Below are positions 9,294-13,064 of a stretch of 53,703 nucleotides of DNA, piece by piece. The notes under the pieces are model-generated. The model saw only the letters and a program-made list of their open reading frames with translations, had not been told where the DNA came from and did not search any database. This DNA comes from Candidatus Epulonipiscium sp. (GTDB lineage Bacteria; Bacillota; Clostridia; Lachnospirales; JAAYNZ01), in the NCBI GenBank assembly GCA_012520595.1, contig JAAYNZ010000020.1, positions 1 through 53,703 of the forward strand, written 5' to 3'. A program made the position numbers and the translations under genes. Position 1 is the stretch's first letter. The number at the start of each line of letters is the position of its first letter.

Positions 9294-9334
9294 AAAGAAG
9301 TTTCTTTGTATTAAAAAAGAAACTTCTTTTATTT
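9294..9334 (+). terminator. Terminator after mgsA
   Basis: 14-bp perfect arms aaagaagtttcttt / aaagaaacttcttt followed by a T-rich tail. Confidence 0.7.
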
Positions 9335-9348
9335 TTGGAATAAGAAAT

Positions 9349-9377
9349 TCATATACAACTCTTTCCCTACATAAGAT
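9349..9377 (+). promoter_or_regulatory. Putative sigma-E (mother-cell) promoter for the spoIVF-like operon
   Basis: TCATATA...CATAAGAT, matching ATA-N16-CATAnnnT. B. subtilis spoIVF is sigma-E dependent. Confidence 0.6.
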
Positions 9378-9421
9378 ATAGTAATAAAGGATGGATATGG
9401 ATACACAAAGGGGAGAAGGAT

Positions 9422-9862
9422 ATGAATTATAGAAAAAAACCAACACGAAGACAACCTATTAATAAAAGATCTCGATATAATCAAGAGAAAACAAAAAAAG
9501 AAAAAATCTTGCTTATTTTTTACAAACAGATAGTGATTAGTGTATGTATTTTTATTTGTTTTGTTGGGCTTAAAGTTTTACCATTTGTAGTAACAAAAAA
9601 TTGGATAAAGAATATTAATGAGAGCATATCCTATCAAGTGGAATGGCAACAAGTATATTATATGGCAACCCAATTACCGGCTTTTAAAACTTGGGTAGAA
9701 GAACAATGGACAAAAGAGAAGACGATTGAAGGTTCTGAGGATACTATAGAAGATCTAAAGGAAGAAAGCCCATTGGAACCAGAGCAAGAACAGGATATCA
9801 ATATTTTAGATGAGATAGAACAAAATCCGATAAAAGAGCAAGAAGGGTTATTGGGAAAGTAG
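9422..9862 (+). CDS. N-terminal half of a SpoIVFA-like protein (basic N-terminus, one TM helix, acidic linker); zero-frame ORF of a probable frameshifted gene
   Basis: RBS ggggagaagg. TM around QIVISVCIFICFVGL. Ends GGA AAG TAG. Confidence 0.75.
   Translation: MNYRKKPTRRQPINKRSRYNQEKTKKEKILLIFYKQIVISVCIFICFVGLKVLPFVVTKNWIKNINESISYQVEWQQVYYMATQLPAFKTWVEEQWTKEKTIEGSEDTIEDLKEESPLEPEQEQDINILDEIEQNPIKEQEGLLGK
9853..9862 (+). other. Candidate -1 programmed ribosomal frameshift site G_GGA_AAG followed by UAG
   Basis: X_XXY_YYZ heptamer in correct phase with ORF 9422-9862. A -1 shift enters the M23 frame, which is open from 9814 to 10269. Confidence 0.65.
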
Positions 9863-10269
9863 ATTGGATTAATCCTGTTTATGGAATCATTACAGATAGA
9901 TTTGGAGAGAGAGAAAACCCCATATTAAAAAAGAAAGAATTTCATACAGGAATCGATATCGGAGCACCTTTAGGAACACCCATTATGGCTGTGCAAGCTG
10001 GAAAGATCAAAGAAGTAAAAAAATCTGCTACGTATGGTCATGTAGTTGTGTACGATACTATCGATGGGTATACTATTTTATATGCCCATTGTCAGGAAAT
10101 TTTTATTCAAGAAGAAGAGGAAATTCAACAAGGACAAATTATTGCTGCTATTGGGGATACAGGGTTAGCCACAGGGCCCCATTTGCACTATGAAATTGTT
10201 AAAGATGGAATTTTAATCGATCCCATACAATATGTATCTTTACCTTTTATTCGATCTTTAGAACCATAG
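9859..10269 (+). CDS. M23/LytM peptidase domain, the C-terminal half of the SpoIVFA-like protein, in the -1 frame
   Basis: The frame reads VDWINPVYGIITDRFGERENPILKKKEFHTGIDIGAPLGTPIM...TGPHLHYE. The HTGID motif lies upstream of the first ATG (9985). Confidence 0.85.
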   Translation, partial: VDWINPVYGIITDRFGERENPILKKKEFHTGIDIGAPLGTPIMAVQAGKIKEVKKSATYGHVVVYDTIDGYTILYAHCQEIFIQEEEEIQQGQIIAAIGDTGLATGPHLHYEIVKDGILIDPIQYVSLPFIRSLEP

Positions 10270-10284
10270 AGAAAGAGGTTATCT

Positions 10285-11154
10285 ATGTTTAAAATTCGTT
10301 TTCATCCATTAGTAATCATTTTATTTATGGTTTCAATTGCTCTAAATAAAGTAGGGCAATTTTTTATTCTATTTTTCGTGATTACTGTTCATGAATTTTC
10401 TCATATTTTAGCAAGCAAAAAAGGGAAGGTCAAATGCATAAAATGGAGTTTCCTTCCTGTTGGTCAAGCTGCTTTTATTGAAGATTTAGTATTGCAGCCT
10501 CCTTGGAAACAAACCATTATTTTATTAGCAGGTCCTATGAGTAATTTCATTATAGCTGCAATAGGGCATTTGTTTATAATGATAGACCATCCTTATGTTC
10601 AATTTTTCCTTATATCTAATATAGCGATTGGGATTTTTAATTTATTACCCATTTATCCTTTAGATGGGGGTAAAATTCTATATGGATGGTTGGCTCATTA
10701 TAGGGGCAATTTACAGGCTATGAAACAAATGTTATATCTTAGTCGAAAGTGGATAGAATTGCTAAAGGTTTTTGGTATAATACAAATAATTTTATATCCA
10801 TTTAATAGTAGTTTGCTTTTTATTTGTTTTTATCTTAACTATATAAATAAAAAACAGCAACTTTTTGGAACTTATGAATTATATAAAATGATGTGGATAA
10901 AACAGAAATATATAGATAAAACAGAAATGTGTAATTTTGTATATTGTCGCAGGACGCATGTAGAAACCTCATTTGCAAAAATTTTACAGACATTTTCGAC
11001 TTCACGCTATGATGTGTTTTTAGTTCAAACAAAAACAATTCAGCAACCTCAAATTATTTTTGAAAAAGAATTATTCGCTTATATATTAAAATATGGTATG
11101 GAGGGAACCATTGAAGATTATTTGGAGTTTCAAAAGAACCAAGCAAAATGTTGA
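10285..11154 (+). CDS. spoIVFB: M50 intramembrane metalloprotease, SpoIVFB-like (pro-sigma-K processing)
   Basis: HEFSH, AGPMSN and NLLPIYPLDGG motifs. Lies between the min cluster and rplU as in Bacillus. Confidence 0.82.
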   Translation: MFKIRFHPLVIILFMVSIALNKVGQFFILFFVITVHEFSHILASKKGKVKCIKWSFLPVGQAAFIEDLVLQPPWKQTIILLAGPMSNFIIAAIGHLFIMIDHPYVQFFLISNIAIGIFNLLPIYPLDGGKILYGWLAHYRGNLQAMKQMLYLSRKWIELLKVFGIIQIILYPFNSSLLFICFYLNYINKKQQLFGTYELYKMMWIKQKYIDKTEMCNFVYCRRTHVETSFAKILQTFSTSRYDVFLVQTKTIQQPQIIFEKELFAYILKYGMEGTIEDYLEFQKNQAKC

Positions 11155-11179
11155 TATTGCATTTAAAGTAGGATATGAT
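11151..11179 (+). promoter_or_regulatory. Putative sigma-A promoter
   Basis: TTGATA-N17-TATGAT. Confidence 0.5.
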
Positions 11180-11219
11180 AAAAAAGAATATAGTAAATAC
11201 AAATGGAGGAAATACAAAT

Positions 11220-13064
11220 ATGAATAGAAGAGTACCGGATGAAATTTTGTTGCAAGTAGAAAAACCGGGACGTTACATTGGTAATGAAATCAATATGGTT
11301 CGTAAAAAAAAGGAACATATTGATATTCGATTTGCTTTTTGTTTTCCAGATGTTTATGAGATAGGAATGTCCCATTTGGGAATGCAGATATTATATCATT
11401 TTTTAAATAAGCGAGAAGATACTTATTGTGAGCGAGTGTTTGCACCTTGGATTGACTTAGAAAAACACATGCGAAAGCATAAAATCCCTTTGTTTGCTTT
11501 AGAAACCCAAGATCCGATTCAGAATTTTGATTTTGTAGGATTTACACTTCAATATGAAATGAGTTATACCAATCTTTTAAATATGTTAGATTTAGCGGGA
11601 ATTCCTTTATATAGTGAACAACGGAAGGAAGAAGATCCCATTATTTGTGCTGGAGGACCTTGTGCTTATAATCCTGAACCTTTAGCAGACTTTATTGACT
11701 TTTTTTACATTGGCGAAGGGGAAGTGATGTTAAATCAAATATTAGATTTATACAAGAAAAACAAACAAAACGGAGGAACACGACATCAGTTTTTGGAAAA
11801 ATTATTGTCAGTAGAAGGAGTTTATGTTCCAAAATTTTATAAAGTAAGTTATAAAGAAACAGGGGAGATCGCTTCTTTTATTCCTCTTCATCCAAAAGCA
11901 AAGACAAAAATTACGAAACAAGTAGTAGAACAATTTGATAAAAATCATTATCCTAGTAAACCATTGGTTCCTCTGCTCCAAACAGTTCATGACCGAGTGG
12001 TCTTAGAGGTTTTTCGTGGATGCCTTCGTGGATGTCGATTTTGCCAAGCGGGAATGGTTTACCGACCTGTTCGTGAAAAACAAGTCGATCAATTACTAGA
12101 ACAAGCTGATCAGCTTTTAAAAGCTACTGGACATGAAGAAATTTCTTTGTCTTCTTTAAGTACCAGTGATTATTCCGAAATAAAACAATTAATGACTGCA
12201 TTAGTTCATCGATATAGTACAAAAGGAATTAATATTTCTTTACCATCCATGCGTATCGATGCTTTTTCTCTTGAATTAATGAAAAAATTACAAGACATCC
12301 GTAAGAGCAGCTTAACCTTTGCACCAGAAGCTGGAACCCAACGACTTCGAAATGTTATTAATAAAGGATTAACAGAAGAAGATATTTTAGAAGGATCTAA
12401 ATTAGCTTTTGAAGGTGGTTGGGAACGAGTTAAGTTATACTTTATGATGGGTTTACCTACGGAAACAGAAGAAGATTTACAAGGTATTGCTATTTTAGGA
12501 CATGAGATTGTGGAAACTTTTTATCAAGTACCCAAAGAACAGCGAGGAAGAAACATAAAAGTAGTTATTAGCACTTCTTGTTTTGTTCCTAAACCTTTTA
12601 CTCCTTTTCAATGGGAAGCCCAAAATACTTATGAGGAGTTTATGGAAAAACAACGTTTATTAAAAACAAAGATTACAAAAAGACAAGTTCAATATCAGTA
12701 TCATGATGCAAAACTCAGTGTATTAGAAGGTGTAATTGCTCGAGGAGACCGAAAGGTTGGACAAGTGATTTATGAGGCTTGGAAACAAGGATGTGTTTTT
12801 GATGGGTGGTCCGAACAATTTCATTATGAAAAGTGGCAAGAAGCCTTTAAAATAACAGGAATCAATCCTGATTTTTATGCTCACCGAAAAAGAAATCTAG
12901 ATGAAATTTTACCTTGGGATCATATTTCAATCGGTGTTACTAAAGGATTTTTAAAGAAAGAATATGAAAAAGCTCTTCAAGAGCAAACGACTTCTCATTG
13001 TCGTCTTCAATGTGAACATTGTGGAGCCATGATTTTCAAAGGAGGAGTTTGCTATGAAATATAG
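11220..13064 (+). CDS. B12-binding radical SAM protein, TIGR03960-like
   Basis: FPDVYEIGMSHLG and RGCLRGCRFC (CxxxCxxC) motifs; TFAPEAG. ATG 11220 after ggagg. Confidence 0.9.
   Translation: MNRRVPDEILLQVEKPGRYIGNEINMVRKKKEHIDIRFAFCFPDVYEIGMSHLGMQILYHFLNKREDTYCERVFAPWIDLEKHMRKHKIPLFALETQDPIQNFDFVGFTLQYEMSYTNLLNMLDLAGIPLYSEQRKEEDPIICAGGPCAYNPEPLADFIDFFYIGEGEVMLNQILDLYKKNKQNGGTRHQFLEKLLSVEGVYVPKFYKVSYKETGEIASFIPLHPKAKTKITKQVVEQFDKNHYPSKPLVPLLQTVHDRVVLEVFRGCLRGCRFCQAGMVYRPVREKQVDQLLEQADQLLKATGHEEISLSSLSTSDYSEIKQLMTALVHRYSTKGINISLPSMRIDAFSLELMKKLQDIRKSSLTFAPEAGTQRLRNVINKGLTEEDILEGSKLAFEGGWERVKLYFMMGLPTETEEDLQGIAILGHEIVETFYQVPKEQRGRNIKVVISTSCFVPKPFTPFQWEAQNTYEEFMEKQRLLKTKITKRQVQYQYHDAKLSVLEGVIARGDRKVGQVIYEAWKQGCVFDGWSEQFHYEKWQEAFKITGINPDFYAHRKRNLDEILPWDHISIGVTKGFLKKEYEKALQEQTTSHCRLQCEHCGAMIFKGGVCYEI

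Follow-up and report, generated by a model that had tools for sequence, protein, structure and literature searches.

A split SpoIVFA-like gene in Candidatus Epulonipiscium and its relatives: a candidate programmed ribosomal frameshift

How does a bacterium make a peptidoglycan peptidase whose reading frame offers no canonical start codon before the active site? The question is raised by a locus of Candidatus Epulonipiscium sp. at positions 9,422 to 10,269 of contig JAAYNZ010000020.1, of which we analysed a stretch of 53,703 nucleotides (nt) on the forward strand, called the window below. At this locus, a gene for a small membrane protein and an open frame for an M23 metallopeptidase overlap in different frames just upstream of a spoIVFB-like gene. 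An earlier note on this DNA proposed that the two are joined by programmed -1 ribosomal frameshifting in a SpoIVFA-like gene, and the sequence comparisons set out here support that interpretation. The split recurs throughout an entire order of Clostridia, and for this reason it looks like a deliberate recoding signal and not like a broken gene.

The junction in the window

The zero-frame open reading frame (ORF), called ORF1 (9422..9862, + strand), encodes 146 amino acids (aa): a very basic N-terminus, one transmembrane (TM) segment with a hydropathy of 2.6, and an acidic linker. It ends TTG GGA AAG TAG, as the earlier note had read it. The last sense codons of this end contain the slippery heptamer G_GGA_AAG (9853..9859, +), phased with ORF1, and the stop codon TAG (9860..9862, +) follows immediately 3' of it. 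The -1 frame is open for 151 codons (9814..10269, +; stop at 10267-10269) and reads ...IGKVDWINPVYGIITDRFGER...FHTGIDIGAP.... Both this frame and the M23 domain claimed for it are confirmed by the translation and by a match to Pfam PF01551, Peptidase_M23, over positions 2-96 of the 96 in the profile (E = 2e-29; 102.1 bits against a cut-off of 28.7). The best PDB match of the M23 part is 3slu_A (3.4e-21), and together these two matches define its fold.

The part of the -1 frame that would follow a slip, from 9859 on, comprises 136 aa and holds the complete M23 domain. Its metal-binding and catalytic residues (9943..10188, +) are encoded at 9943-9945 (H), 9955-9957 (D), 10087-10089 (H), 10180-10182 (H) and 10186-10188 (H); numbered H30, D34, H78, H109 and H111, they are presumably the counterparts of the zinc and catalytic residues of LytM-type enzymes. 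The first canonical start in this frame is an ATG at 9985..9987 (+), which lies 3' of the HxxxD motif, and a scan for ATG, GTG and TTG agrees with the earlier note that none precedes it. The overlap between the two frames is 49 nt, and it does hold the correctly phased GGGAAAG abutting the stop. A tandem slip at that heptamer would give a trans-frame protein of 146 + 136 = 282 aa, the length that the earlier note had estimated, with a predicted junction peptide ...LLGK-VDWINPVYGIITDR.

How, then, would one chain be made from two frames? We regard it as likely that programmed -1 ribosomal frameshifting at G_GGA_AAG, with its abutting stop, yields a 146-aa anchor and a 282-aa anchor-M23 protein. 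Most ribosomes would stop at the TAG at 9860 and release a membrane anchor with an acidic tail. A minority would slip one base back on the heptamer, with the Gly and Lys tRNAs re-pairing to GGG and AAA and the slowly decoded stop codon next in line assisting them. The shifted ribosomes would carry on in the -1 frame to complete the 282-aa protein, whose M23 domain, by the positive-inside rule, should lie outside the membrane. The ribosomal nature of the slip, its efficiency, the topology of the protein and the role of the two products in the SpoIVFB/sigma-K checkpoint are what we infer from this arrangement.

An interrupted frame could also mean that the gene is broken, whether by a recent frameshift mutation, by decay into a pseudogene or, as an artefact, by an indel in the assembly. 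The stretch is present wholly or partly in 20 sequencing runs from 12 studies. Contigs from three independent studies (X2, X5 and X8), compared over 9400-10300, span 9853-9862 with zero indels, so that the junction is not the assembly error considered in the earlier note; one additional contig, from a run that may be RNA (X20), covers 180 nt at 9983-10162, short of the junction. Strain single-nucleotide polymorphisms, found in the contigs of two other studies, flank the junction at 9846, 9873 and 9898 and leave the heptamer and the stop unaltered. The first (G>A) changes Gly to Glu in ORF1, the second (T>C) is synonymous in the M23 frame, and the third (A>G) replaces Arg by Gly where the N-terminus of M23 is variable.

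The closest relatives give a second view of the same junction. One genome of the same genus (G001) and one of another genus in the same family (G002) have an M23 part 73% identical to that of the window, and despite this mere 73% protein identity the junction is retained: the two frames stand in the same 0/-1 arrangement, ORF1 ends ...LGK TAG on TTGGGRAAGTAG, and the TAG abuts the slip site in all three family genomes. The heptamer of G002 is G_GGA_AAG, identical to that of the window. The 40-odd residues before TTGGGRAAGTAG, which form the acidic linker, are unalignable among the three.

Both frames are also under purifying constraint. The ratio of nonsynonymous to synonymous substitution (dN/dS), computed on the three genomes of the window family (f1) alone, lies between 0.25 and 0.35 in ORF1 and between 0.07 and 0.14 in the M23 frame, values that are rough because dS is near or above 1 (near saturation); they nevertheless fall below 1 in both frames, as the earlier note had anticipated for two translated frames. 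The five active-site residues are invariant in 16/16 aligned orthologs (alignment A1, made from 16 of 17 chosen loci; L024, whose reference contained a stop, was left out). Together, the low dN/dS and the invariant active site show that the -1 frame encodes a working, selected domain and that the gene is no pseudogene.

What would suit a broken gene is that gene callers give fragments only. Public gene calls contain a 94-aa product (P0004) that is the Met-9985 ORF of the window, with 100% identity and on 12 contigs, and a 132-aa product (P0003, 'M23 family metallopeptidase [Epulopiscium sp.]') that begins at an ATG of the type seen in G002. A gene read in two frames accounts for this fragmentary annotation. 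A fused-length close relative was likewise missing at E <= 1e-30 among 937 protein candidates, and this is weak evidence. Two single-contig genomes (G067 and G054) are likewise split. In the ortholog-bearing genomes of the order, paralogous M23 genes have open frames of about 300-1100 aa.

The split in related genomes

Beyond the family, a profile built on the M23 part was run against 151 genomes of the window's order (probably Lachnospirales, where the named relatives place the group), and 54 of them gave an ortholog-level match (E <= 5e-43, clearly above paralogs). Every one of these junctions was read: 40 need a -1 shift, 11 need a +1 shift, and 3 are fused. The prospect that relatives all carry a fused gene without the heptamer, named in the earlier note among the outcomes that would speak against a frameshift, is thereby contradicted, since 51 of the 54 ortholog-bearing genomes are split. 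A larger set of 67 genomes adds 13 lower-scoring matches (nine -1, three fused, one unclear), which are biased to split forms because they were picked largely for short or notable open frames. This set contains 49 genomes of the -1 type, 11 of the +1 type, 6 fused and 1 unclear, in 22 family codes, and the split spans at least 20 family codes of the order. A separate scan of genome contigs with alignment A2, which holds 8 of the 16 A1 loci, was swamped by generic M23 peptidases (at least 600 matches); three of the 80 loci kept from it were relevant (L034-L036).

What lies at the junctions of the 49 genomes that need -1? At least one in-phase heptamer is found in 36 of them: A_AAA_AAN in 29, G_GGA_AAG or C_CCA_AAG in 3, T_TTG_GGG in 3 and other heptamers in 1. 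A stop directly 3' of the heptamer, as in the window, occurs in 13 of these 36. In-phase X_XXY_YYZ motifs number 47 in the 646 codons of the overlaps and 150 in the 7366 codons of the ORF1 bodies, and are thus 3.6 times denser in the overlaps. A simple count of heptamers per phase (36 genomes in phase 0, 14 in phase 1 and 21 in phase 2) is not clean because long A-runs score in several phases, and the phase in which A-runs end was used in its place. Each of the six 6-nt runs occupies the only phase that is valid for its length, and each of the eleven 7-nt runs occupies one of the two that are valid for it, against a background of 28, 33 and 40 A-runs over the three phases of the ORF1 bodies.

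The surroundings of these sites hold one recurrent block: (T)AGTTCCG or GGTTCC is seen 8-12 nt past the A-run in L122 (G035), L145 (G056), L136 (G014), L127 (G067), L165 (G058) and L134 (G034). It spans several family codes and reads V-P in the zero frame (tails PVVPE*, QLVPE*, PLVPLE...) and S-S or G-S in the -1 frame, and it may reflect constraint on the zero-frame protein tail, on the trans-frame linker or on an RNA element.

The +1 relatives belong to two family codes, f21 (L116, L117, L123, L124, L126, L128, L130 and L140) and f12 (L012, L152 and L156). ORF1 ends CCC TAG in 10 of the 11 and CCA TAG in one (G049), and the M23 frame runs on as CCT AGY. The stop is TAG in 11/11 of this group, compared with 14 of 67 M23 stops. 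Two Anaerotignum metagenome-assembled genomes (L034 and L035) are also of the +1 type, with CCC TAG in 2/2. The CCA TAG of G049 fits poorly with a simple +1 slip of a Pro-tRNA. A Shine-Dalgarno (SD) sequence of the prfB kind was looked for 5' of the +1 sites, where GGAG stands 3 nt upstream in 3 of 11, and a few further sites have purine tracts of other kinds; it is not a general feature. That the junction mostly calls for -1 at A_AAA_AAN, but for +1 at CCC TAG in two family codes, argues that recoding itself is under selection.

Was the gene whole at the start? Among 251 genomes of the class, 13 from other orders have a best homolog at E values of 1e-41 to 1e-45, and all 13 of these outgroup homologs are fused: single ORFs of 255-345 codons with the TM segment in frame and an M50 gene directly 3'. 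The tree and the ORF1 homology test used 11 of these 13 loci, without L178 and L179, which come from the same genus as L177. ORF1 of the window is homologous to and collinear with the N-terminal half of the fused outgroups (BLASTP E = 4e-7), and a profile gives 36.6 bits, where 200 shuffles reach at most 5.0 bits. Within the order, 12 hand-picked pairs of a fused protein and a split locus were compared by tblastn; the fused proteins match the split loci partly in one frame and partly in another, and the query coordinates are contiguous, with the switch at the slip site. The protein of G016 matches the G014 locus with query positions 52-210 in one frame and 196-371 in the other, and for the protein of G063 on the G013 locus the two matches (5-119 and 124-247) flank the CCC TAG. 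The fused linker of G016 (…TTEKKVFGSDSG…) resembles the trans-frame reading of G014 across A_AAA_AAG.

A quick tree of the domain, built on 136 columns and of low resolution (its 'm1_Grun' label was set by a loose pattern), places the 67 sequences of the order on one side of a branch with a Shimodaira-Hasegawa-like approximate likelihood ratio (SH-aLRT) support of 97. The A-run type runs across most lineages, and the +1 type appears at two or more positions. The fused forms of the order, six in number, L114 (G016), L151 (G063), L157 (G124), L026 (G031), L169 (G068) and L176 (G111), are scattered and nested among split ones, requiring 5 changes, which suggests that they are secondary re-fusions. 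The simplest reading of these data is that the ancestor would have had a gene with one ORF, encoding a basic N-terminus, one TM segment, a linker and M23, 5' of spoIVFB, as other Clostridia do, that the split arose in or near the ancestor of the order, and that the device has since changed several times with occasional but rare re-fusion. A retained split, swapped devices and rare re-fusion form the pattern that selection for recoding itself predicts, bearing in mind that the tree is weak.

These comparisons also bear on the notion of a broken gene or an artefact. Besides the clean junction and the constraint on the M23 frame described above, the split is retained nearly throughout the ortholog-bearing genomes in which the M23 paralogs stay open, and re-fusion is evidently easy, yet fused forms are rare. 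We take this explanation as already contradicted by the sequences and give it next to no weight.

Routes from two frames to one protein

The case for -1 frameshifting in the window is not without difficulties, and the following observations weigh against it, alongside the saturation of dS mentioned above. Conservation of the site among orthologs, as envisaged in the earlier note, holds in part: the split and the stop are kept in G001 and G002, but the heptamer of the congener G001 is the imperfect G_GGG_AAG, at which re-pairing of the Gly tRNA is still possible. In G002, an ATG lies two codons past the stop, and it is there that the gene caller starts its 132-aa M23 product. Across the 49 genomes of the -1 type, 10 have a G_GGN tetramer only, mostly TTG GGG GAG in f32, the nearest relatives of the window family; 2 have an A_AAR tetramer only, and 1 has no site. 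In 10 of the 11 genomes of the +1 type, the M23 frame has a canonical start 5' of the domain. G-rich motifs can act as SD sequences for weak -1-frame initiation at non-AUG codons (PMC4066793, which, like the other literature sources given below, is cited from partial text). Lastly, no stimulatory RNA structure was found downstream of the site, and a consensus fold of the window, G001 and G002 contains 1 compensatory pair in 15, with a positive covariation term.

The search for stimulators deserves a closer look. The earlier note had pointed to a modest hairpin at 9875-9895, which did not hold up: a downstream hairpin or pseudoknot was rejected for the window, where 9860-9929 folds no better than shuffled sequences (z = +0.40; 128 of 200 shuffles do equally well or better) and 9830-9929 gives z = +0.44, and the hairpin is not conserved in G001 or G002. 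Downstream folding in those two genomes gives z = -1.18 and z = -3.22, respectively, with differing structures. The 5' purine run GAAGGG is weak, and the alignment shows that neither G001 nor G002 conserves it. The conserved candidate for a stimulator in the window family is the abutting stop codon. As for the slip site proper, the motif G_GG.A_AA.G ranks in the top three for -1 efficiency in E. coli (PMC4066793).

Could the M23 domain instead be made as a separate polypeptide? On this explanation, which ranks as the main rival for the window family, the frames would never be joined: M23 would be produced alone, by termination-reinitiation or by weak internal initiation at a non-canonical codon, with GGGAAAG serving as a poor SD sequence, and the protein would be soluble and cytoplasmic. 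A possible start does exist at the required place in all three family members, 8 nt past GGGAAAG or GGGGAAG, as ATT in the window (at 9868, in the M23 frame) and in G001 and as ATG in G002, the latter being the start that the gene caller chose for P0003. Moreover, SD-driven initiation on an AUA codon has been reported for G_GG.G constructs (PMC4066793), and the starts of the +1 genomes noted above could be used in the same way, among them an ATG conserved in G013 and G132 and a frame-opening ATG in G141.

For most of the order, however, separate initiation fails, because the M23 frame has no ATG, GTG or TTG 5' of the domain in 36 of the 49 genomes of the -1 group, the window included (37 of 60 split genomes overall). 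In f19, the slip site lies 2-3 codons before the conserved INP..G.ITS.FG core. In the window family itself, the conserved W of the domain N-terminus lies 5' of the ATT, and GGGAAAG lacks the GGAG/GAGG core that is present before ORF1 and before the M50 gene. By what is established for the family, an M23 peptidoglycan peptidase that lacks a signal or anchor would not reach its substrate, the cell wall. Separate initiation would leave unexplained why known slippery heptamers stand in the correct phase in such short overlaps, and the fused outgroups and two-frame alignments show a one-chain ancestral product. We consider it improbable that the M23 chain of the window is initiated on its own.

A third possibility is that the frames are joined before translation, by RNA polymerase slippage that adds one base in a homopolymer run and so fuses the frame in some mRNAs. 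This is a known route at long A/T runs (PMC5009743, PMC4066793), and the sites in the relatives often are such runs, with eleven of 7, three of 8 and nine of 9 A residues among the 29 A_AAA_AAN genomes. The window site, in contrast, consists merely of GGG and AAA, and neither the TTG GGR sites of f1 and f32 nor any of the CCC TAG +1 sites has a long homopolymer. The six A6 runs, moreover, are all in the sole phase that forms a ribosomal heptamer, a phase that polymerase slippage would not need. In some relatives, part of the shift at the A8-A9 sites may be due to transcriptional slippage, but GGGAAAG, TTGGGG and CCCTAG cannot host it, and as an account of the locus we find it very unlikely. 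Programmed ribosomal frameshifting therefore stays the explanation that we prefer for the window.

Known recoding systems and the sporulation locus

Which known systems does this locus resemble? The slip heptamer of phage lambda gpG/gpGT is GGGAAAG, identical to that of the window. There, too, the slip lies near the 3' end of a short ORF and gives a short product and a C-terminally extended fusion in a set ratio, as -1 frameshifting in the window would. Unlike the lambda case, the window gene is a bacterial chromosomal gene of a sporulation locus, its stop abuts the site, and the extension is an enzyme domain. The tail-chaperone genes of dsDNA phages reach the same outcome by -1 or by +1 (PMC5009743), as the present gene would between lineages.

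In insertion sequences (IS), A_AA.A_AA.G and A_AA.A_AA.A together account for 72% of heptamers, followed by A_AA.A_AA.C (PMC4066793). The heptamer spectrum of the IS3/IS1 transposases (A_AAA_AAG, A_AAA_AAA, A_AAA_AAC) matches that of the relatives of the window, and these genes share with the locus two overlapping ORFs in a 0/-1 relation and a functional enzyme that needs the fusion. Unlike them, the locus is not mobile, and no hairpin or pseudoknot of the IS911 or IS3 type was found in the window. A cellular parallel is E. coli dnaX (tau/gamma), a gene with an A_AAA_AAG-type site and two products with a common N-terminus, like those proposed here. In dnaX, however, the shifted product is the shorter one, and a defined upstream SD and downstream stem-loop are present, neither of which is evident in the window.

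The +1 relatives have models of their own. In Listeria phages and in pheL, +1 frameshifting takes place where a stop follows CCC (PMC5009743), and the CCC-stop systems (the tsh genes of Listeria phages PSA, A118 and A500, CCC_UGA of E. coli pheL, and the prfB-type 'shifty stop') match the CCC TAG of those relatives. The likeness applies to the relatives and not to the window; moreover, the stop is TAG and not TGA, and the prfB-like GGAG is confined to the few sites counted above.

The setting is that of a sporulation gene. Directly 3' of the M23 frame, 15 nt past its stop, lies a SpoIVFB-like Peptidase_M50 gene (10285..11154, +; 289 aa; PF02163, E = 3.4e-18), whose translation contains HEFSH and NLLPIYPLDGG, the HExxH and NxxPxxxLDG motifs. 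B. subtilis spoIVFA is a single ORF. SpoIVFA is likewise encoded directly 5' of an M50 gene and has a cytoplasmic N-terminus, one TM segment and a LytM/M23 domain; here, such a single chain holds only if the frameshift occurs, with the TM segment in ORF1 and M23 in the -1 frame. The clostridial gene has been described as a non-orthologous displacement, and the LytM domain of the Bacillus protein as degenerate and probably inactive (PMC3533761); in the window M23, in contrast, the five active-site residues are intact, and the domain looks active. The description 'SpoIVFA-like' given in the earlier note is thus borne out by position and architecture but not by a degenerate LytM domain or by sequence, since no curated SpoIVFA family gave a match. 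The nearest curated families are the active endopeptidases Pgp3, MepM and ShyA, all below their cut-offs.

The linkage to spoIVFB is not universal in the order, since an M50 gene lies directly 3', within the 1.5-kb flank, in just 40 of the 67 loci; in the other 27 none was found there. In f32 and several f21 genomes, a different gene follows M23, and in L006 it is an S1-domain, RNase E/G-like ORF. The window genome encodes SpoIVB, sigma-K and BofA, which score 425, 349 and 69.6 bits, respectively, each above its curated cut-off. On the 5' side, the neighbours of ORF1 are minD, minE, a rodA-like gene and an MGS-domain gene, the last of which ends in a terminator-like inverted repeat, GTTTCTT...AAGAAAC, and a T-run (window 9300-9340). 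A 629-aa ORF 3' of the M50 gene (11175-13064) has a CxxxCxxC-type motif and looks like a radical-SAM protein.

Between the MGS-domain gene and ORF1 lies a candidate sigma-E-type promoter (9349..9377, +), made up of TCATATA, 14 nt and CATAAGAT. The spacer upstream of ORF1 is divergent among G000, G001 and G002, but within it ATTCATAT and, 14 nt after it, a CATA block do not vary, and we take this pair to resemble the sigma-E promoter consensus. As a lead only, a sigma-E-like promoter would fit expression in the mother cell.

To our knowledge, few bacterial chromosomal genes outside mobile elements have a conserved programmed frameshift; dnaX, prfB and copA are examples, with only a handful more. 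A literature search agreed with the earlier note in finding no described recoding in spoIVFA, with the proviso that supplementary tables (GeneTack clusters, Galperin Tables S3) may list such a cluster. Nor was a frameshift case involving M23, LytM, sporulation or a peptidase found in the available portions of PMC3711429 and PMC5009743. The available text of two surveys states that clostridia are without SpoIVFA proper and have a non-orthologous LytM gene in its place, and contains no mention of recoding (PMC3533761; 2022 preprint). The mechanism would therefore be of a known kind, programmed frameshifting, and the comparisons support an unusually broad and varied conservation of it, in a gene for which recoding was previously undescribed.

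What might the two products be for? The earlier note suggested that their ratio could tune SpoIVFB and pro-sigma-K processing, which stays a conjecture. The anchor and the anchor-enzyme could set the stoichiometry of the SpoIVFB complex; alternatively, recoding could serve to hold down the amount of an enzyme that may be lytic. For the group as a whole, we lean, with less assurance than for the window junction itself, to the view that programmed recoding, kept since the ancestor, is the sole route by which a whole order of spore-forming Clostridia (probably Lachnospirales) makes the catalytically intact M23 peptidase encoded beside spoIVFB, with the device swapped (-1 at A_AAA_AAN, -1 at G_GGR, +1 at CCC TAG) and occasionally lost by re-fusion. 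If this is true, a fixed ratio of anchor to anchor-M23 would be a selected feature of the mother-cell/forespore checkpoint or of cell-wall remodelling at the engulfment stage. The interchange of -1 and +1 in one cellular gene would provide a natural experiment for asking why selection should fix the ratio of two products, and recoding may explain why the surveys just cited report no SpoIVFA in clostridia. The finding would add a programmed frameshift in a developmental gene, kept across an order with many gut and digester spore-formers, and it raises a testable question: do two forms of the clostridial SpoIVFB partner exist, of which one is active as a peptidoglycan hydrolase?

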